Source: Proteiniphilum sp. UBA1403 (lineage in GTDB: Bacteria; Bacteroidota; Bacteroidia; Bacteroidales; Dysgonomonadaceae). Taken from it: 64,000 nt of DNA. The stretch's first letter is position 1. Each line of letters begins with the position of its first letter. The stretch spans positions 12,436 through 76,435 of the forward strand of contig DBQD01000042.1 of NCBI GenBank assembly GCA_002305715.1, read 5' to 3'. The notes beneath the pieces were generated by a model. It was not told where the DNA came from. It did no database searches and was given only the letters and a program-made list of their open reading frames with translations. Below are positions 36 to 10,697 of this stretch, piece after piece. The translations under genes and the position numbers were made by a program.

Positions 36-3000
36 ATGAAAAAATACGTAATTATCGCTTACTTGCTAGCGTTTGCTTCCGTTTCATCTGCACAGAATCA
101 TCATCCGGATTCTTTGAAAGCCTATATCGGTAGGTCACTCTCAAACATTTACCTAGAGACATTGTCACGTCCAACCAGGGTGGCAATAGAGAAGATTTTA
201 ATAAACGATCGACAAAAGTTCATTGAATTACAAACAAACCTTGCACTCTCCTATCTCCCCATGCGAGAACAGACTGTGCAATTGATATACGATAGTGTAC
301 GGTATCATCTTTCGGCGAAACAAAAAAAATACCAAATAGCAGTCATTACCGACGGGATGGAGATCAGCCTGCTGGTGCCAAACTTCTTCCGAAACAGTCA
401 ACTCGATAAAGATAGAATGATTGCGCACAACGTTTCGACACCACTGGTGAAGAATGTCTCCTCTCCGACTGGTTCTTTTAGCAAGGGATTGCAAAATAAC
501 CACATTGCACTCTGGCAGAGCCACGGTTGGCACTACGATCAAAAACTGGGAAGATGGGAATGGCAACGGGCACGCATTTTCCAAACGGTAGAGGACCTAT
601 ACACACAGAGTTATGTGCTTCCCTTCCTTGTTCCTATGTTGGAAAATGCGGGAGCCAATGTGCTGCTCCCTCGAGAAAGGGATTACAACAAAATTGAAAT
701 TATTGTTGATAATGATGAGAGCATTGGTGGTAAATCGACTTACAAGGAAACAAACGGAAAGGAGAAGTGGGGGAACACCGGAATAGCCGGTTTTGCCAAT
801 CTCCGAAAAATGTACATGGATTATGAAAATCCATTTCGAATGGGTACGGCAAGAGCAGTTCGTACAATTAGCCAAGGGAAAGAGAGTCTTGCAACATGGA
901 ACTTCGACATTCCAGAAAAGGGTAAATATGGGGTCTATGTTTCTTACCAGACACTAAAAAATAGCAGCAGCGATGCACTATATAGTGTATTCCATGCGGG
1001 AGGGAAGACCGATTTCAGGGTGAACCAACAGATGGGGGGAGGAACATGGATCTTTCTGGGATACTTCGACTTTGAAAAGGGTTCAACACAGAAAATTACG
1101 CTGTCTAACAAAAGTAGCCAGGATGGAAAAGTTGTGTCCGCAGATGCAGTGAAGATAGGTGGAGGAATGGGTAACATTGCTCGAATACCTCATCCAGAGT
1201 ACTTAGCTGTGGAAAGCACCAGTAAGACAGATACATCGAAAGAGAAAAAGAGTCTGGCTTCACAAATTAATTACACTCCACAAGTCAGCGGATACCCACG
1301 TTATGCAGAAGGCGCACGCTACTGGATGCAGTGGGCCGGGGTACCTGATACAATTTACAACCGAACAGAAGGGATGAACGACTACACAGACGACTATGTA
1401 TCACGGGGTGTATGGGTGAATTGGTTAGCTGGAGGTTCTTCGGTGCTACCCAAAAAGGAGGGTTTACAAATTCCGGTGGACTTGGCATTTGCCTTCCACT
1501 CAGATGCCGGCACCTTTTGGGGAGATACAATTGTGGGAACACTCGGCATTTATATGACACACTATAACAATGAAAAGTTCGAAAACGGTCGTTCTAGGTG
1601 GGCATCACGTGATCTGACTGAACTTGTTATGGAAGAGATTGTGACAGATATTCGTCGTGAATTTGAACCGGAATGGAATCGTCGTCAGCTTTGGAACCGC
1701 TCTTATGCAGAAGCTCGTATACCCAATGTGCCGACCATGTTATTGGAATTATTGTCACATCAGAACTTTGCAGACATGCGTTACGGACTAGATCCGACCT
1801 TCCGCTTTACAGTCAGCCGCTCTATTTACAAGGGGATGTTGAAATTTCTTGCAACCCAGTATAACAGACCGTATGTGGTTCAACCTCTTCCCGTAAAGGC
1901 TTTCTCTGCCCATTTCATCGGGGAGACACAAGTGAAGCTTTCTTGGCAACCGACAACCGATCCGGCAGAGTTGAGCGCTAAGCCTGACAGGTATGTGATA
2001 TATACTCGTATGAACGGAAAAGGGTTCGACAACGGATTCGTGGTACATGACAACAATGTTGTACTCTCTATTCAAAAAGACAGCATATATAGTTTTCAGG
2101 TGGTTGCAGTCAATGAGGGTGGACGAAGTTTCCCTTCAGAAACGCTTTCTATATGCCGCAGATCAAACCAAAAGGGAGAAGTTCTGATAGTGAACGGATT
2201 CACCAGAGTATCTGCACCTTTTAGTTTCACAACTTCACAAGATAGTATTGCCGGCTTTTTAGGAAGTGTGGACAATGGTGTACCTTATCTGGTAGATCAT
2301 CATTTCACTGGGCAAATGCATGAATTTAGACGTGTTATCCCCTGGATGGACGACGATGCGGCTGGCTTTGGAGAGAGTAATGCAAATTATGAAACTACAC
2401 CCATAGCAGGTAACACATTCGATTATCCCTATACTCATGGTGAGGCTTTTGCAACGGCAGGATACTCTTTTGTCTCCACTTCAGCCGAAGCAGTGGAAAA
2501 TGGGAGTATGAACTTGAAAGATTATAGAATTGTGGACTGGATTCTGGGCAAACAACGTGAGTGGAGTGTGGCTCGTGGTGCTAAACCACCGAAATACAAA
2601 ACATTTTCGCAATCGCAGCAACTGGCAATTACCGAATTTTGTAAAGGAGGGGGAAAGATCATCATCAGCGGAGCTTTCGTCGGCACCGACCTGTGGCAGA
2701 ACCCACATGCTACGTTAGCAGATCGAGATTGGGCATTGCAGACATTGAAATTTAAATGGAGAAACAACAACGCAGCGGTGACTGGACAAATAAAAGCGGT
2801 ACCTTCACCATTCTCGGCAATTCAAGGCAACTACAACTACTATAACGAACTGAACAGCGAATGCTATGTAGTGGAGAATCCAGATGCACTGGAACCGGTT
2901 GATGTAAATGCATTTACCATCTTTCGGTATACAGAGAACAATCTGAGTGCAGGGGTACTCTACAAAGGAGCTGTATATGACACCTGTATTCTTGGTTTTC

Positions 3001-3071
3001 CAATTGAAGCGGTGAAGACACAAGAGAAAAGAAATGAACTGATCCAACGCATCATGAACGTATTTGATTAA
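36..3071 (+). CDS. Exported multidomain protein of the family usually annotated 'xanthan lyase'; Amidase_3-like zinc amidase with inserted beta-sandwich (golvesin-C-like) domain and fibronectin type III domain
   Basis: Signal peptide (MKKYVIIAYLLAFASVSSAQ); amidase-like motifs HIALWQSHG, EDLYT, AFAFHSDA, PTMLLELLSH; FnIII-like segment (VKLSWQP...YSFQVVAVNEGGRSFPSE). Confidence 0.7.
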   Translation: MKKYVIIAYLLAFASVSSAQNHHPDSLKAYIGRSLSNIYLETLSRPTRVAIEKILINDRQKFIELQTNLALSYLPMREQTVQLIYDSVRYHLSAKQKKYQIAVITDGMEISLLVPNFFRNSQLDKDRMIAHNVSTPLVKNVSSPTGSFSKGLQNNHIALWQSHGWHYDQKLGRWEWQRARIFQTVEDLYTQSYVLPFLVPMLENAGANVLLPRERDYNKIEIIVDNDESIGGKSTYKETNGKEKWGNTGIAGFANLRKMYMDYENPFRMGTARAVRTISQGKESLATWNFDIPEKGKYGVYVSYQTLKNSSSDALYSVFHAGGKTDFRVNQQMGGGTWIFLGYFDFEKGSTQKITLSNKSSQDGKVVSADAVKIGGGMGNIARIPHPEYLAVESTSKTDTSKEKKSLASQINYTPQVSGYPRYAEGARYWMQWAGVPDTIYNRTEGMNDYTDDYVSRGVWVNWLAGGSSVLPKKEGLQIPVDLAFAFHSDAGTFWGDTIVGTLGIYMTHYNNEKFENGRSRWASRDLTELVMEEIVTDIRREFEPEWNRRQLWNRSYAEARIPNVPTMLLELLSHQNFADMRYGLDPTFRFTVSRSIYKGMLKFLATQYNRPYVVQPLPVKAFSAHFIGETQVKLSWQPTTDPAELSAKPDRYVIYTRMNGKGFDNGFVVHDNNVVLSIQKDSIYSFQVVAVNEGGRSFPSETLSICRRSNQKGEVLIVNGFTRVSAPFSFTTSQDSIAGFLGSVDNGVPYLVDHHFTGQMHEFRRVIPWMDDDAAGFGESNANYETTPIAGNTFDYPYTHGEAFATAGYSFVSTSAEAVENGSMNLKDYRIVDWILGKQREWSVARGAKPPKYKTFSQSQQLAITEFCKGGGKIIISGAFVGTDLWQNPHATLADRDWALQTLKFKWRNNNAAVTGQIKAVPSPFSAIQGNYNYYNELNSECYVVENPDALEPVDVNAFTIFRYTENNLSAGVLYKGAVYDTCILGFPIEAVKTQEKRNELIQRIMNVFD

Positions 3072-3079
3072 AATTTCGT

Positions 3080-4534
3080 ATGAACAAATTAGATGCTTTT
3101 ATCCTTTTCACAGAGCCAGAACAGGCAAGAATAACCATAAATGAATTGCGCCAGTCGGAGTCGGTCGGCACAATCTGGCTCCTTACTCCAGAAGGAAGTA
3201 AAGAGAAAATAAAAGGATGTAAATATATCCACATTGACAGCCTGTATAGTAGTGAGACAATCCGTGCAATTGCAAAGAATACAAAAAACAATTATACGCT
3301 CATTTACTTGAAACCTTACGCACTTAAACTGGGTTACTTTGCACTGGAACGAATGATTCGCATTGCGAAAGACTCAGCTGCAGGCATGGTATATGCCGAC
3401 TATTATGCAGTACTGGGAGGTGAAAAGAAAAATAGACCTGTTATCGACTATCAGGAGGGAAGCTTGCGCGACGACTTTAACTTTGGCTCGGTACTTTGTT
3501 ACAACACACTTGCCTTGAAAAAGGCGGTCAAACGAATGAAAAAAGAGACGTACCAGTTTGCGGGATTGTATGATTTGCGTCTTAAAGTATCTCAAAAGTA
3601 TCCGCTTGTTCACATCAATGAGTATCTCTACACAGAGATAGAAAATGATACCCGGGTAACTGGTCAGAAGATATTCGACTATGTGGATCCAAAAAACAGG
3701 CAGCTTCAACTAGAAATGGAGCAAGTATGCACACAACACTTGAAGGATGTGGGCGCTTGGTTGGAACCGACATTCAAACAAATTGAATTTGATAAGGAAA
3801 TATTTGAAGTAGAAGCTTCGGTCATCATTCCAGTCCGCAACCGCATACGAACAATACGTGATGCCATTGAATCGGTTCTCAGACAGAAAACAACATTTCC
3901 TTTCAACCTGATCGTCATTGACAATCACTCAACCGACGGCACGACAGAAGCTATCGATGCATTCAAAAGTGACAGTCGATTGATTCACCTTATTCCGGAA
4001 AGGGACGACTTGGGTATTGGAGGATGCTGGAACATGGGTGTACACCACAACCAGTGCGGGAAGTTTGCTGTACAACTCGATAGTGACGATGTATACAGCG
4101 ATGTAGACACACTGCAGAAGATTGTGAATGCATTCTACGAACAACAGTGCGCCATGGTGGTGGGAACCTATCAGATGACCAACTTCGAAATGCAAATGAT
4201 TCCTCCCGGTATTATTGATCACAGGGAGTGGACAACCGAGAATGGTAGAAACAATGCTCTTCGCATAAACGGTCTGGGGGCACCTCGTGCGTTTTATACT
4301 CCCGTGCTGAGGGAGATTAAGGTTCCAAACACCAGCTATGGGGAAGATTATGCATTGGGTTTAAACATTTCTCGACACTACCAAATTGGTCGAATCTACG
4401 ATGTTCTCTATCTCTGCCGCCGTTGGTATGACAACACCGATGCCTCTCTCGATATTGAAAAGATGAACGAACACAACCTCTATAAAGACAGGATCAGGAC
4501 ATGGGAACTTCAGGCGAGAAAGAAAATGAGATAA
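3080..4534 (+). CDS. Glycosyltransferase family 2 protein with tandem GT-A domains
   Basis: C-terminal GT2 motifs SVIIPVRNR, VIDNHSTDGT, QLDSDD, GEDY; N-terminal degenerate GT-A-like half. Confidence 0.85.
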   Translation: MNKLDAFILFTEPEQARITINELRQSESVGTIWLLTPEGSKEKIKGCKYIHIDSLYSSETIRAIAKNTKNNYTLIYLKPYALKLGYFALERMIRIAKDSAAGMVYADYYAVLGGEKKNRPVIDYQEGSLRDDFNFGSVLCYNTLALKKAVKRMKKETYQFAGLYDLRLKVSQKYPLVHINEYLYTEIENDTRVTGQKIFDYVDPKNRQLQLEMEQVCTQHLKDVGAWLEPTFKQIEFDKEIFEVEASVIIPVRNRIRTIRDAIESVLRQKTTFPFNLIVIDNHSTDGTTEAIDAFKSDSRLIHLIPERDDLGIGGCWNMGVHHNQCGKFAVQLDSDDVYSDVDTLQKIVNAFYEQQCAMVVGTYQMTNFEMQMIPPGIIDHREWTTENGRNNALRINGLGAPRAFYTPVLREIKVPNTSYGEDYALGLNISRHYQIGRIYDVLYLCRRWYDNTDASLDIEKMNEHNLYKDRIRTWELQARKKMR

Positions 4535-5919
4535 GTGAAACTCTTAAAAATGTAGGTGATCCACTTAGAGGAATAAAAGAACCACTTATAAAAGAACCAC
4601 TTATAAATGTAGGGATCATTCAAGAGCAACCCGAAATAGACTTCATATTGCTATCCGATTACAAGCTGAAGGGTAAACCTATCTGCAAAGGTAAGTATAG
4701 AGTTTGTTTTTCTGATGGAATGATTCTATTTAATGGAGAAACCTATACGGAAATATCCTTTGATACGGATGATATGCACAATGATACATTTGAGCTTAAG
4801 AATGTGATGATTGGTGTTAACTTTCACTGGCAGCGTAAAGAAGATCAACGTTTCCAAGGTGGCTTGAAGTTGGTATGTGGAGAGGAAGGTATCACGGCCA
4901 TTAATGTTGTCACACTTGAGGATTACCTTAAAAGTGTAATCTCTTCCGAGATGAGTGCCACCAGTTCAGATGAATTTCTGAAGGCACATGCTGTGATCTC
5001 CAGAAGTTGGCTGCTGGCACAGTTACAGAAAAGCAGAGAGATTCAAGAAAACAAGAAGATCGAGGACAACTTTAAATCGTCATTTGAAACGACATGTGAA
5101 ATAATCCGTTGGTATGATCGGGAAGACCATGCACTATTCGATGTATGCGCTGATGATCATTGTCAGCGTTATCAAGGAATTACGCGACAAACGACCGAAC
5201 GGGTGAACCTAGCGATCGATGCAACCAAGGGGCAGGTGATTACTTTCAATGGTATTATTTGTGACGCTCGCTTCTCGAAATGCTGTGGTGGTGTGACTGA
5301 GGCTTTTGAAAACGTTTGGGAACCTATTCTGCACCCATACCTTATAGGAAAAAAAGATTCCACTGAGGACACTCCATTACCCAACCTTAGGGATGAGGAA
5401 AATGCCAGGTCTTGGATTCTATCCGCTCCACCTGCATTCTGCCACACCTCTGATGCAGCAGTACTCAAACAGGTGCTGAACGACTATGACAGAGAGACGA
5501 CAGACTTTTATCGTTGGCAAGAGGTATATTCGCAAAAAGAATTAAGTGAACTTATCATGAAGCGTTCTGGTATAGATTTCGGAGAAATAGTAGCATTGGA
5601 ATCACTAGAACGGGGAAATTCAGGGCGTATCATCCGATTGAAGATCATGGGCACCAAACGGGTGATGACAATTGGAAAAGAGTTGGAAATACGACGTACG
5701 CTCTCGCCCTCACACCTTTACAGTGCTGCATTCGTAATAGATGCAGAGAATGAGAACGAGGAGGGAATTCCACAACAGTTCACACTTAAGGGTGCAGGAT
5801 GGGGACATGGTGTTGGCCTTTGCCAGATTGGAGCAGCCATGATGGCAGATAAGGGATATAAATTTGATGAGATTTTACAGCATTATTTTCCTCTAACAGA
5901 ATTGATTACCTATTATTGA
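4501..5919 (+). CDS. SpoIID/LytB domain protein (putative lytic transglycosylase); true start uncertain
   Basis: LEDYLKSVISSEM, KAHAVISRSW, FDVCADDHCQRYQG, GAGWGHGVGLCQIGA motifs. Confidence 0.9.
   Translation: MGTSGEKENEISETLKNVGDPLRGIKEPLIKEPLINVGIIQEQPEIDFILLSDYKLKGKPICKGKYRVCFSDGMILFNGETYTEISFDTDDMHNDTFELKNVMIGVNFHWQRKEDQRFQGGLKLVCGEEGITAINVVTLEDYLKSVISSEMSATSSDEFLKAHAVISRSWLLAQLQKSREIQENKKIEDNFKSSFETTCEIIRWYDREDHALFDVCADDHCQRYQGITRQTTERVNLAIDATKGQVITFNGIICDARFSKCCGGVTEAFENVWEPILHPYLIGKKDSTEDTPLPNLRDEENARSWILSAPPAFCHTSDAAVLKQVLNDYDRETTDFYRWQEVYSQKELSELIMKRSGIDFGEIVALESLERGNSGRIIRLKIMGTKRVMTIGKELEIRRTLSPSHLYSAAFVIDAENENEEGIPQQFTLKGAGWGHGVGLCQIGAAMMADKGYKFDEILQHYFPLTELITYY
4573..4607 (+). 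repeat. 15-bp tandem duplication ATAAAAGAACCACTT x2 plus ATAAA
   Basis: Read directly; encodes IKEPL-IKEPL-I at the SpoIID N-terminus. Confidence 0.9.
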
Positions 5920-5960
5920 TTACGTAGTAAAACAGGCTCACAAAGCCCTAATAAAATAAT

Positions 5961-7259
5961 ATGAACAAACACAAGAAAGTCGCATCTCGTAATCCTTGGA
6001 CGTGGATACCCACCCTCTATTTTGCGGAAGGATTACCCTATGTAGCGGTGATGACCGTCTCGGTAATCATGTACAAACGTTTTGGCCTTTCCAACACCGA
6101 TATTGCACTCTACACGAGTTGGCTATACCTCCCATGGGTTATAAAACCCTTCTGGAGTCCGTTTGTGGATATTTTGAAAACAAAACGATGGTGGATTGTT
6201 TCAATGCAATTGTTGATTGGAGCTGGCCTGGCGGGGGTAGCATTTACCTTACCAACACCGTTCTACCTTCAAGCATCCCTTGCATTTTTCTGGATGATAG
6301 CATTCAGTTCAGCAACACACGACATTGCCGCAGACGGCTTTTATATGTTGGCTCTCGACGATTCGCAACAGTCCTTTTTCGTGGGTATACGCAGTACCTT
6401 TTATCGGTTAGCTTCTATAACAGGACAAGGATTTTTAATTATTCTAGCAGGATTTTTAGAAAAAACGACCGGTAAGATACCCTTTGCATGGAGCATTACA
6501 TTCTTTATACTTGCTGGACTGTTCCTATTCTTTTTTGTTTACCATCGCTACTCACTTCCCCTCCCCTCCTCTGATACAGCTAAGGCAGCCCATACACCCA
6601 ATGAAGTGATGAAGGAGTTTGTCAACACTTTCAAGTCTTTTTTTACGAAAAAGGGAATCGGTCTGGCATTGGCTTTTATTTTGCTCTACCGGTTTGCTGA
6701 AGCCATGTTAATTAAGTTGGCGTCTCCATTTCTACTCGACAGTCGCGAAGTGGGAGGATTGGGATTGACCACTTCAGAGGTGGGATTCACATACGGTACA
6801 GTAGGAGCGATTTCCCTCACTGTAGGGGGGATAATTGGAGGAATTGCGGTATCGCGAAATGGCCTTAAACGATGGCTCTGGCCAATGGCACTCGCTATTA
6901 CGCTGCCTAATGCTGCTTACCTTCTCTTAGCTATCTATCAGCCAGAGAACTATTTATGGGTGAATATAGCTGTAGCAACAGAACAGTTTGGTTATGGCTT
7001 CGGATTTACGGCATACATGCTCTACATGATTTACTTCTCGCAAGGGGAACACAAAACGGCCCACTATTCAATCTGTACAGGTTTCATGGCTCTTGGTATG
7101 ATGCTCCCGGGCATGGTTGCAGGGTGGATACAGGAAAGACTGGGGTATGAAAATTTCTTTAATTTTATCATGTTGGCCATCATTCCAACACTATTATTGA
7201 TCCACTTCATAAAGGTAGATCAGGACTTTGGCAGATCGAAAAAAAGCGATAGAAGTTAG
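5961..7259 (+). CDS. ampG: AmpG-family muropeptide MFS permease
   Basis: PWTWIPTLYFAEGLPY, KPFWSPFVD, SATHDIAADGFY motifs; about 12 hydrophobic segments; locus context. Confidence 0.85.
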   Translation: MNKHKKVASRNPWTWIPTLYFAEGLPYVAVMTVSVIMYKRFGLSNTDIALYTSWLYLPWVIKPFWSPFVDILKTKRWWIVSMQLLIGAGLAGVAFTLPTPFYLQASLAFFWMIAFSSATHDIAADGFYMLALDDSQQSFFVGIRSTFYRLASITGQGFLIILAGFLEKTTGKIPFAWSITFFILAGLFLFFFVYHRYSLPLPSSDTAKAAHTPNEVMKEFVNTFKSFFTKKGIGLALAFILLYRFAEAMLIKLASPFLLDSREVGGLGLTTSEVGFTYGTVGAISLTVGGIIGGIAVSRNGLKRWLWPMALAITLPNAAYLLLAIYQPENYLWVNIAVATEQFGYGFGFTAYMLYMIYFSQGEHKTAHYSICTGFMALGMMLPGMVAGWIQERLGYENFFNFIMLAIIPTLLLIHFIKVDQDFGRSKKSDRS

Positions 7260-7279
7260 ATGAAAAGGAGTGTGCATGG

Positions 7280-7708
7280 ATGGTATCAAAAGAAATATCT
7301 ATAAAGTCGTTTTTGATTGTTTTACTTTTGCTAACGGGAATAGTTTTCAGCGGGAAATCGAGAGCACAAAACATACGACTGGATAAGCTTGTTTTCGACA
7401 TTCAGGATATTGGTTGTTAATCTTATACCTATATCTCCACGATGTATCTGGCAATGCAAGCTGCAGCAGAAAGTAACATTGTGTTTGAGGTACTAGAGAG
7501 TCCTAACCCATAATGACCCAAAGTGAACAAATGACTCTACAGTCCAGAATACTCACCATGGTGAAAATAAAAAAATGACGACAGAAGATGAGTAAGTGGT
7601 TTCATTCGACTGGCATTCTCCAAGAATCACCAGTTCGACGACATAAAAAACAACTGGACCAAAGATGAAGAAGCGTTCTGTAAATTATTGAAGAAGTATT
7701 ATCTTTAC
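7280..7708 (+). pseudogene. namZ: Collapsed remnant of a DUF1343 exo-beta-N-acetylmuramidase gene (NamZ/YbbC family)
   Basis: Manual translation from ATG 7280, all in one frame: signal peptide MVSKEISIKSFLIVLLLLTGIVFSGKSRAQ, then LVFDIQDIGC*SYTYISTMYLAMQAAAESNIVFEVLESPNP* (stops 7418 and 7511), a stop-rich stretch, then GFIRLAFSKNHQFDDIKNNWTKDEEAFCKLLKKYYLY matching the family C-terminus. Confidence 0.85.
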
Positions 7709-7783
7709 CGTTTAAATAAAAAGGATCAACACAATTATCTGAAATAAAAATAAAAAAATCACCTATTTATTCCAAAAAAGGAT

Positions 7784-8953
7784 ATGAAAAAACTTACTTC
7801 TACCTCACAAAATAATCGACTTTTGTCGCTCGACATTCTTCGCGGTATTACCATTGCCGGTATGATTCTAGTCAATAATTCCGCAGGTGGTTATGCCTAT
7901 ACACCCTTAAAACATGCACATTGGCATGGACTTACACCTACCGACCTAGTCTTCCCCTTCTTCATGTTCATCATGGGAGTCTCCACTTTTATGTCATTGC
8001 GTAAATTCAACTTTGCTCTTTCTGGTGCTGCGGTGTGGAAAGTGGTTCGTCGCACCCTGCTCATTTTCCTTATTGGGATGGCTCTAGGATGGTTTGGTCA
8101 ACTTGTGTATGGACTAGCTTCAGGAGAAACAATAGGTGTAGCTGCAACCCATTTCGACACAATACGTATCTTGGGTGTACTGCAACGACTGGCATTGGCA
8201 TATGGTTTTGCCGCTCTCATTGCGTTGTTGGTAAAAAACAAACAATTACCATGGGTCGCTGCGATAATATTAGCTGGTTATTATCTGATCCTTCGCTTCG
8301 GGAAAGGATTCGAGTTGTCAGAAGAAAGTATTATTGCTCGTATCGACACTGCACTTTTGGGAGCAGCACACATGTATAAAGATACCACACCCGAGGGAGT
8401 ACGGATTGCGTTTGAACCCGAAGGTTTAATTAGCACGCTGCCCTCCATTGCTCATGTACTCATTGGTTTTCTCTTTGGAAAATTAATTGTAGACAACAAA
8501 GACAACAATACAAAGGTGGCAAAACTACTTATATGGGGTACTATTCTTGCATTTTCCGGCTTATTACTCCAATATGGATGTCCCATTAACAAGAAGATCT
8601 GGAGCCCAACCTTTGTTCTTGTAACTACCGGTTTCGCCGCACAGTTGTTGGGGCTTCTGATATGGATCATTGACATCAACAAAAAAGAAAAATGGAGTCG
8701 CTTCTTTCATGCATTTGGGGTTAATCCACTCATTGTATATGTTTTCGCCGGTGTTTTTGCCACCCTGGTTGGTGCCATCCGATTTGCGTGGCAAGGTGAA
8801 ACAATTTCTGTTAAATCATTTACATACAGCGTACTACTTCAACCTTGGGCAGGAAACTACTTCGGATCGCTACTATATGCAGTGCTATTTGTCACAATTT
8901 GCTGGCTTTTTGGCTATATTCTATACAAAAGGAATATTTACATCAAACTTTAA
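7784..8953 (+). CDS. HGSNAT/DUF5009-family membrane protein; MurT-like MurNAc transporter or transmembrane acetyltransferase
   Basis: RLLSLDILRG, LVNN, HAHWHGLTPTDLVFPFFMFIMG, FEPEG, PINKKIWSPTF motifs; directly upstream of kinase and murQ. Confidence 0.8.
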   Translation: MKKLTSTSQNNRLLSLDILRGITIAGMILVNNSAGGYAYTPLKHAHWHGLTPTDLVFPFFMFIMGVSTFMSLRKFNFALSGAAVWKVVRRTLLIFLIGMALGWFGQLVYGLASGETIGVAATHFDTIRILGVLQRLALAYGFAALIALLVKNKQLPWVAAIILAGYYLILRFGKGFELSEESIIARIDTALLGAAHMYKDTTPEGVRIAFEPEGLISTLPSIAHVLIGFLFGKLIVDNKDNNTKVAKLLIWGTILAFSGLLLQYGCPINKKIWSPTFVLVTTGFAAQLLGLLIWIIDINKKEKWSRFFHAFGVNPLIVYVFAGVFATLVGAIRFAWQGETISVKSFTYSVLLQPWAGNYFGSLLYAVLFVTICWLFGYILYKRNIYIKL

Positions 8954-9008
8954 ATAGTAGTACGTTCACTTGTGGAATCTCTTTTCAATTCAATAAAAAC
9001 GTAGAACA

Positions 9009-9839
9009 ATGCTGATTGCCGACAGTGGTGCCACCAAAACAGATTGGTGTTTGGTACGTGGAGATGAAGTCTTGCAACGATTTTCGGGGAAAGGTATTAG
9101 TCCTATTTATCAGAGCGAAGAGGAAATAGCGCAAGAGATACGGGAACATGTTTACCCTTTGCTGACTGACAATGATGTTGGCGCAATTCATTTCTATGGC
9201 TCAGGATGCATTCCCGAGAAGATTCCCTTAGTGAAACAAGCCATTCAACAATCATTCTCAATTGATGCAATCCATGTATACAGCGACCTTATGGCTGCTG
9301 CACATAGCTTATGTGGTCATGAGGCTGGTATAGCCTGCATACTTGGTACGGGAAGTAACTCCTGTGAATGGGATGGTGAAACGATTCGGAAACAAATATC
9401 CCCGCTAGGCTTTATACTGGGAGACGAAGGAAGTGGTGCTGCGCTGGGAAAACAACTGGTGGCAGATGCACTTAAGAATCAGCTTACCCCGGGACTTAAA
9501 GAAGAGCTAATGGATGAATACCATCTAACGAGTGCACTGATAATTGATAAAGTTTATCGGCAGCCCTTCCCTAGTCGTTTCCTTGCTAGTCTTTCTCCTT
9601 TTCTGCATCAACACATTGAGGATGTATCAATTCGACGAATTGTCACTCAATCATTCCGAGTCTTCTTCGAAAGAAACGTCATGCAATACGATTATCACAA
9701 CATGGAAGTACATTTTGTGGGCTCTATCGCATGGTATTATGCAAACCTGCTTCGGGAGGTAGCTGTAGAAAAGGGTATCAACATCGGTAAAATTGCACAA
9801 TCTCCAATGGAGGGATTGGTCCGCTATCAGCTCACATAA
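9009..9839 (+). CDS. BadF/BadG-type sugar kinase, MurK-like MurNAc/GlcNAc kinase
   Basis: IADSGATKTDW, ILGTGSNSC, LGFILGDEGSGA motifs; between murT-like gene and murQ. Confidence 0.8.
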   Translation: MLIADSGATKTDWCLVRGDEVLQRFSGKGISPIYQSEEEIAQEIREHVYPLLTDNDVGAIHFYGSGCIPEKIPLVKQAIQQSFSIDAIHVYSDLMAAAHSLCGHEAGIACILGTGSNSCEWDGETIRKQISPLGFILGDEGSGAALGKQLVADALKNQLTPGLKEELMDEYHLTSALIIDKVYRQPFPSRFLASLSPFLHQHIEDVSIRRIVTQSFRVFFERNVMQYDYHNMEVHFVGSIAWYYANLLREVAVEKGINIGKIAQSPMEGLVRYQLT

Positions 9840-9878: not shown

Positions 9879-10697
9879 ATGACTTTTATTAAAATAACAG
9901 AACAACCATCGCTTTATGATAATCTGGAACAGAAGTCCGTCACGGAGATTCTGACAGAGATTAACAAGGAGGATCAAAAAGTGGCAATGGCTGTGGAGAA
10001 AACCATTTCAGAGATAGAGAAATTGGTTACCAGCGTTGTGGAGAGAATGAAGCGAGGAGGTCGACTTTTTTATATTGGCGCAGGCACTAGCGGTAGGTTG
10101 GGAGTACTCGACGCAGCGGAGATTCCCCCCACCTTTGGAATGCCCAACACCTATGTTATTGGTCTTTTAGCCGGAGGTGATCAAGCCCTACGCAATCCTG
10201 TAGAGGCAGCAGAAGATGATATGGAAAAAGGATGGGAAGAACTGCTGGAACACAAGATCAATACGAATGACGTGGTGGTGGGGATTGCAGCATCAGGCAC
10301 CACACCCTATGTGATTGGAGCGTTGCGACATGCTCGAAAAAAAGGTATTCTAACAGCAGCTATTAGTTGCAACCCAAACTCACCAATTGCAGCAGAAGCA
10401 GAGATAAAGATTGAACCAATTGTTGGTCCTGAGTATGTTACCGGCAGTACCCGCATGAAATCGGGTACTGCCCAGAAGCTAATACTCAACATGATTACGA
10501 CTACGGTTATGATCAAACTGGGACGAGTAAAAGGAAATAGAATGGTAAACATGCAGCTAACCAACCAAAAATTGGTAGAAAGAGGCACACGGATGATTGT
10601 CGACGAACTTTCAATCAATTACGAGCAAGCAAAGAACCTGTTACTTCTACATGGAACGGTTAAAAGGGCGATCGACAATTATAAAAACGATCAATAA
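9879..10697 (+). CDS. murQ: N-acetylmuramic acid 6-phosphate etherase
   Basis: GGRLFYIGAGTSGRLGVLDA, GIAASGTTPYV, GPEYVTGSTRMKSGTAQK, NMVNMQLTNQKL. Confidence 0.95.
   Translation: MTFIKITEQPSLYDNLEQKSVTEILTEINKEDQKVAMAVEKTISEIEKLVTSVVERMKRGGRLFYIGAGTSGRLGVLDAAEIPPTFGMPNTYVIGLLAGGDQALRNPVEAAEDDMEKGWEELLEHKINTNDVVVGIAASGTTPYVIGALRHARKKGILTAAISCNPNSPIAAEAEIKIEPIVGPEYVTGSTRMKSGTAQKLILNMITTTVMIKLGRVKGNRMVNMQLTNQKLVERGTRMIVDELSINYEQAKNLLLLHGTVKRAIDNYKNDQ

Follow-up and report, generated by a model that had tools for sequence, protein, structure and literature searches.

Positions 7280–7710 on the + strand of the window, the 64,000-nucleotide stretch of DNA analysed here, almost certainly hold the dead, species-fixed remnant of a gene for a periplasmic NamZ1-type GH171 exo-beta-N-acetylmuramidase, a gene that has been lost repeatedly in the genus. 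The remnant is a pseudogene of the GH171/NamZ family rather than a member enzyme, and it is unable to make one. It lies between an ampG-like and a murT-like gene, in a gap of 524 bases that extends from the ampG stop (7259) to the murT-like start (7784) and whose longest entry in the ORF listing has 46 codons.

The initial annotation had recognised in this gap a collapsed NamZ/DUF1343 pseudogene on the basis of a signal peptide, an FDIQDIGC*SYTY core (the asterisk marks a stop) and a C-terminus, and all three are present in the translation from the ATG at 7280. The frame-1 translation of 7280–7720 reads MVSKEISIKSFLIVLLLLTGIVFSGKSRAQNIRLDKLVFDIQDIGC, a stop, SYTYISTMYLAMQAAAESNIVFEVLESPNP, two consecutive stops and, at its end, FIRLAFSKNHQFDDIKNNWTKDEEAFCKLLKKYYLYR. 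The family assignment is confirmed by a profile search for DUF1343 across the interval, in which NamZ_N (PF07075), the catalytic domain, matches the remnant far beyond chance with 57.7 bits (E 1.3e-15, profile positions 78–132 of 203; Pfam cut-off 26.9 bits) and is found again with 56.1 bits in a whole-genome profile scan. NamZ_C (PF20732), the auxiliary domain, matches with 22.1 bits (E 2.9e-4, positions 108–152 of 152), just under its Pfam cut-off of 25 bits. When 17 intact genes of the genus are combined into a protein profile, the remnant scores 114 bits in total (E 7.7e-37), distributed over a signal-peptide, a core and a C-terminal segment, and a DNA profile built from 32 such genes finds three stretches with about 97, 74 and 10 bits (Table 1). 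The core piece shows approximately 80% amino acid identity to intact NamZ1-type proteins of congeners and approximately 44% to the NamZ2-type protein of its own genome. An Rfam scan of 6900–8100 at E <= 1 gave no matches.

Table 1. Features of the gap and of the adjacent genes, in window coordinates; "genus profile" is the protein profile of 17 intact genes, and nhmmer scores refer to the DNA profile of 32.
Feature	Position	Strand	Evidence and remarks
GT2 glycosyltransferase, intact	3080..4534	+	Pfam Glycos_transf_2 77.7 bits
SpoIID/LytB-domain protein, intact	4501..5919	+	Pfam SpoIID 87.6 bits; TIGR02669 178.8 bits
ampG-like MFS muropeptide permease, 432 aa, intact	5961..7259	+	Pfam MFS_1; TIGR00901
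Piece A: namZ1 start codon, signal peptide, AQ cleavage site (…SRAQNIRL)	7280..7376	+	genus profile 4–29
Piece B: NamZ N-terminal domain core (LVFDIQDIGC*SYTYISTMYLAMQAAAE…PNP)	7377..7510	+	NamZ_N 78–132; genus profile aa 126–171, 68 bits; nhmmer 97.4 bits, E 1.3e-32
Piece C: weak fragment from the middle of the gene	7520..7591	+	frame of 7282; genus profile aa ~207–232, hmmsearch 9 bits; nhmmer 10.1 bits, E 2.8e-6 in 551-bp search space
Piece D: final ~39 namZ1 codons (FIRLAFSKNHQFDDIKNNWTKDEEAFCKLLKKYYLYR)	7594..7710	+	frame of 7280; genus profile 371–414, 47 bits; nhmmer 74.2 bits; Pfam NamZ_C 108–152, 22.1 bits
TATTATCTTTA motif (codons YYLY), candidate murT cis-element, -7 box-like	7697..7707	+	putative function
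murT-like membrane protein, 389 aa, intact	7784..8953	+	position of TfMurT
murK-like sugar kinase, 276 aa, intact	9009..9839	+	weak BcrAD_BadFG and NagK matches; position of TfMurK
murQ, MurNAc-6-phosphate etherase, 272 aa, intact	9879..10697	+	NF003915 378.7 bits; TIGR00274 322.7 bits

The two profiles, together with a global alignment to the intact gene of a close relative (G002), resolve the remnant into four pieces separated by three deletions. Piece A is 53% identical over 34 aa to the N-terminus of the G002 protein (tblastn), piece B is in frame with it, and piece C, which is 73–76% identical to G002 in the global DNA alignment, is out of frame with pieces A, B and D. The net loss per deletion is about 290, 109 and 425 bp, respectively, which adds up to about 820 bp or some 65% of the gene and leaves about 35% of it in place. 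Seven stops, of the TAA and TGA kinds, occur in the frame of 7280 at codons 47, 78, 79, 85, 95, 97 and 104. The TAA at 7418–7420, which turns GCRSYTY into GC*SYTY, is the sole stop inside a homologous in-frame stretch, and the remaining six fall at the junctions or within the out-of-frame piece. The several large internal deletions and nonsense codons that had been proposed can thus be enumerated as three and seven, respectively, whereas the accompanying statement that the reading frame was kept holds for pieces A, B and D and fails for piece C, which lies in the frame of 7282. The frame is regained at the C-terminus because the combined length of the second and third deletions is divisible by three (-109 and -425, giving -534 = 3 x 178). 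As each of these two deletions breaks the frame and only jointly do they restore it, the kept frame is a one-in-three coincidence and no sign of constraint. In the intact relative, both ends of the third deletion have a brief stretch of similar sequence, CAAG(A/G)T, which hints that this deletion arose by slippage between short repeats. The gene has thus decayed through three internal deletions and through point mutations that contributed stops.

The genes around the remnant are all on the + strand and uninterrupted, and the ampG-like, murT-like and murK-like genes hold the slots of TfAmpG, TfMurT and TfMurK of Tannerella forsythia. In that organism the cluster Tanf_08345–08385 consists of glycosyltransferases, LytB, AmpG, NamZ1, MurT, MurK and MurQ, and TfNamZ1 (Tanf_08370) is located between TfAmpG and TfMurT (bioRxiv 10.1101/2021.12.02.470905). 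The top NCBIfam match of the ampG-like gene is the AmpG family TIGR00901 with 192.7 bits, which is under the curated cut-off, and both murQ family scores are above theirs. The murT-like protein has a sole family match, the NagX/HGSNAT-like NF046061 (135 bits, below cut-off), and no Pfam match at E <= 1; NagX is an HGSNAT-type transmembrane glucosamine N-acetyltransferase, and the putative role of the murT-like protein as a MurNAc transporter is read solely from its synteny with T. forsythia. A recycling locus that is otherwise retained, as the initial annotation had described it, is therefore what the intact ampG, murT-like, murK-like and murQ genes represent. Decay of the whole locus, in the form of accelerated evolution of the flanking genes, was considered and rejected, since the effect is lineage-wide across all genes of the first 16 kb: each of them is about equally farther from G002 and G007 than G002 is from G007. 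Upstream of the GT2 gene, a large gene at 36–3071 occupies the slot of the T. forsythia 'putative xanthan lyase' (Tanf_08345).

Most genomes of the genus carry two GH171 genes, which are cleanly separable by score. The intact slot orthologue of G002 scores 650 bits to 4K05 versus 183 bits to 4JJA, and the paralogue in the genome of the window scores 596 bits to 4JJA versus 174 bits to 4K05. 4K05 is BfNamZ1, which forms one branch with TfNamZ1, and 4JJA is BfNamZ2, which groups with TfNamZ2 and TfNamZ3; TfNamZ1 releases the GlcNAc-MurNAc disaccharide, the substrate of AmpG, from glycan ends, and TfNamZ2 releases MurNAc, the substrate of MurT (bioRxiv 10.1101/2021.12.02.470905). The authors of that study caution that NamZ specificity is not predictable from sequence alone, and disaccharide-releasing exo-lytic activity within the NamZ1 subgroup is known for TfNamZ1 only (bioRxiv 10.1101/2021.12.02.470905). 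Judged by the score to 4K05 and by the position between ampG and murT, the lost copy is classified as a NamZ1 orthologue. The retained NamZ2-type paralogue, an intact gene on contig C60 with a MerR regulator and valS as neighbours, encodes a protein of 388 aa that has a signal peptide as well as both Pfam domains.

This assignment alters how the metabolism of the locus is to be read. The lost activity had been described as exo-MurNAc release in general, which has to be replaced by that of the NamZ1 subgroup (650 versus 183 bits, and the position of TfNamZ1). A dependence of the organism on free MurNAc had also been proposed; however, contig C24 carries intact copies of murA and murB, so the organism is no MurNAc auxotroph and such a dependence does not follow. 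The paralogue that had been envisaged as the alternative is present in the form of the intact gene on contig C60. As the salvage cluster, the paralogue and murA/murB are all intact, only one activity has most likely been given up, and the loss is most likely limited to the exo-release of GlcNAc-MurNAc from foreign, peptide-free glycan strands, an activity assigned by orthology to TfNamZ1 and BfNamZ1. AmpG would still handle other disaccharides, and MurT, MurK and MurQ would still handle MurNAc. A literature search on Fermentimonas and N-acetylmuramic acid returned nothing relevant.

The fate of the gene was followed across 62 species genomes of the Fermentimonas/Proteiniphilum group of the Dysgonomonadaceae. 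About 39 of them carry an intact gene of approximately 410–420 aa in the slot between ampG and murT, so that intact counterparts, which were sought elsewhere, exist both as NamZ1-type genes in these congeners and as the NamZ2-type paralogue of the same genome. The nearest relatives, whose AmpG is 87–90% identical (G002, G007, G042, G044 and G058), all have the intact gene. A NamZ1-type gene is missing from about 20 of the 62 genomes, about a third of the genus, and the readable loci among them cover all stages of decay. The remnant in the window is the largest of three found; that of G020 is reduced to the signal peptide plus the final 41 codons, and in G062 unrelated DNA interrupts the C-terminal piece that is left. 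Eight further genomes (G045, G056, G059, G066, G069, G023, G071 and G074) have ampG-murT gaps of 20–160 bp, in which NamZ was not detectable, and in G073 and G075 the deletions removed murT too. The last 25 murT codons are all that remains between ampG and murK in G073 (L133), and in G075 (L135) an ampG with one in-frame TAA is followed directly by murK, with murQ barely detectable.

In a quick maximum-likelihood tree of the flanking AmpG and MurT proteins, in which 19 of the 51 inner branches are unresolved, the genome of the window belongs to a six-member clade with 100% support whose other five members are intact, and the three remnant-bearing species sit in three separate clades. The well-supported branches force at least six independent losses, and parsimony counts 11. 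This repeated independent loss shows that namZ1 is dispensable in the genus. Species without namZ1 have smaller genomes only as a trend (medians 2.76 versus 3.1 Mb, one-sided p = 0.057, uncorrected for phylogeny), and all genomes of at least 3.7 Mb retain the gene.

Several peculiarities of ampG were encountered in the same genomes. An apparent AmpG-NamZ fusion in G018, seen as an open frame of 897 aa, is not real, as stops lie between both genes. In G064 (L159, 504–1066) and G055 (L160, 5334–5893) AmpG carries an in-frame, hydrophilic insertion of about 187 aa free of stops, located in the central loop between the residues that correspond to ~174 and ~169 of the AmpG of the window. G020 has two ampG copies (contigs C64 and C6), each 84% identical to that of the window and one of them on a 5.7-kb contig, which may represent a strain mixture in the metagenome-assembled genome.

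The 3' end of the remnant (TATTATCTTTAC, 7697–7708) may have been retained as a promoter or cis-element of murT-murK-murQ. This is a real possibility, if on balance a somewhat doubtful one, and it would add to the pseudogene reading without replacing it. Deletions that remove the motif would then be tolerated only where murT comes right behind ampG. The -7 promoter box of Bacteroidetes reportedly has the consensus TAnnTTTG, as is said to have been described by Bayley and colleagues in 2000, and TATCTTTA, situated 77 bp upstream of the murT ATG, agrees with it at 7 of 8 positions. Moreover, the motif TATTATCTTTA outlives namZ1 in five genomes in which the gene is dead, namely that of the window (G000), G020, G062, G023 and G071. 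In the latter two the motif is kept even though nothing else of namZ1 is detectable, and it centres an island of about 30 bp with 27 of 30 identical bases in a gap that is otherwise 45–60% identical, a level reached by none of 200 shuffles. In YYLY, 30 of 32 intact genes use CTT for Leu, which is the lowest synonymous entropy among 308 conserved codons and compares with a CTT share of 17% at other conserved Leu columns; CTG, CTC, TTG, CTA or TTA is used at this position in other families of the order. Finally, all three remnants retain the C-terminal ~40 codons, beginning within profile positions ~366–374.

Other observations argue against such a role. There is no convincing -33 TTTG at the expected spacing from TATCTTTA, and the motif has been lost altogether in five lineages that kept murT. 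The shuffle test overstates significance, because the sequences are AT-rich and related. Synonymous constraint across the last 45 codons is barely raised (0.74 versus 0.81, p = 0.03), and the proposal that the whole retained stretch of about 130 bp acts as a DNA-level element was rejected, given that the constraint is marginal and only the YYLY codons stand out. If any stretch is selected, it would tentatively be the last ~12–35 bp, that is TATTATCTTTAC and a few following bases. A scan for sigma-70-type promoters and terminators over 5800–9100, whose range does not include Bacteroidetes promoters, found no site at the motif and, overall, no more sites than in shuffles. The window shows no enrichment of exact TAnnTTTG sites (60 versus 50 expected), and the candidate box is a 7-of-8 variant. 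If true, the cis-element role would account for both the retention of the 3' end in independent remnants and the frozen CTT codon. Two exact TAnnTTTG sites were also noted in the vicinity: TAAATTTG at 5859–5866 (+), between the SpoIID/LytB gene and ampG and about 95 bp upstream of the ampG start, is a candidate ampG promoter, and TACTTTTG at 7323–7330 falls within the signal-peptide part of the remnant.

A protein product that still functions, either a truncated NamZ produced through recoding or read-through or a 46-codon secreted peptide encoded by 7280–7420, is very improbable. It is true that the start codon is intact, as are the signal peptide and its AQ cleavage site, and that G020 has independently retained a signal-peptide ORF of 44 codons. 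However, the seven in-frame stops are of two kinds and the flanking genes read normally in table 11, and positions 1–77 of NamZ_N as well as positions 1–107 of NamZ_C are absent from the remnant. In BsNamZ, Glu92 has been proposed to be catalytic and Arg279 is conserved (PMC8054146); judged by profile position, the equivalents of both should fall in the deleted parts. The residues past the signal peptide differ between the genome of the window and G020, and in eight other lineages everything has been deleted.

The pseudogene is also well established at the level of the species. The window is part of contig C17 of a draft genome of 2.76 Mb, which is 99.3% complete in 74 contigs. The exact MurT-like protein is present in 125 blocks of a public assembly collection, and nine independent contigs among those listed (ENA, JGI and Logan) share the collapsed gap, with an ampG-murT spacing of 524–525 bp. 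The nine gap sequences differ by a few SNPs and small indels, which leave the stop codons untouched. With the gap common to nine independent metagenome assemblies, the collapse is, as far as assemblies tell, a fixed trait of the species and no artefact. An origin as an artefact of assembly or sequencing, or as a single-strain variant of an organism with an intact namZ1, has, despite the draft state of the genome with its 74 contigs, a negligible probability in view of the same spacing and nearly the same sequence in nine assemblies from three sources, and of a whole-genome search in which a second namZ1-type copy was not found. Some same-species metagenome assemblies (L161, L164 and L167) have a shortened or split murQ (236 aa; 96 + 185 aa) or a split ampG (290 + 47 aa), the latter in a contig with 1.4x coverage; these are probably assembly errors.

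To conclude, the annotation of the locus gains a missed pseudogene, and its reading is corrected to one in which the NamZ1 step is absent and the NamZ2 step is kept. The genus provides a natural series that leads from the intact gene through a large and a small remnant to clean deletion and further loss of murT, which suggests that, for bacteria still able to make MurNAc, NamZ1 is the component of the AmpG/MurT salvage cluster that can most readily be spared. Matched sister species are available in which the contribution of NamZ1 to growth on foreign cell-wall glycans could be tested. The possible promoter inside the final codons would illustrate on a small scale how an adjacent gene can constrain a coding sequence. 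Overall, this is ordinary gene decay of a known family at a known type of locus, with one modest regulatory lead, and it is unsurprising to specialists.

The closest known systems are TfNamZ1 (Tanf_08370) and BfNamZ1 of Bacteroides fragilis (BF9343_0362, PDB 4K05), with which the locus shares the slot between ampG and murT in a cluster of the order GT-LytB-AmpG-NamZ1-MurT-MurK-MurQ. Orthologues from sister species score 650 bits to 4K05, and a signal peptide and an AQ cleavage site are found on both sides. In contrast to these enzymes, the gene described here is dead, with about 35% of its length, seven stops and one out-of-frame piece, and its host, a member of the Dysgonomonadaceae, has intact murA and murB, whereas T. 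forsythia is a MurNAc auxotroph. The MurNAc-releasing exo-muramidases TfNamZ2, TfNamZ3 and BfNamZ2 (4JJA) are the group to which the copy on contig C60, but not the remnant, belongs, and the C60 gene, like that of TfNamZ2, is not part of the recycling cluster. GH171 was founded on BsNamZ (YbbC) of Bacillus subtilis, which belongs to the same two-domain family and is likewise encoded in a MurNAc recycling operon; it differs in that this operon has the order amiE-nagZ-namZ and includes the PTS MurP, and in that the enzyme releases the MurNAc monosaccharide.
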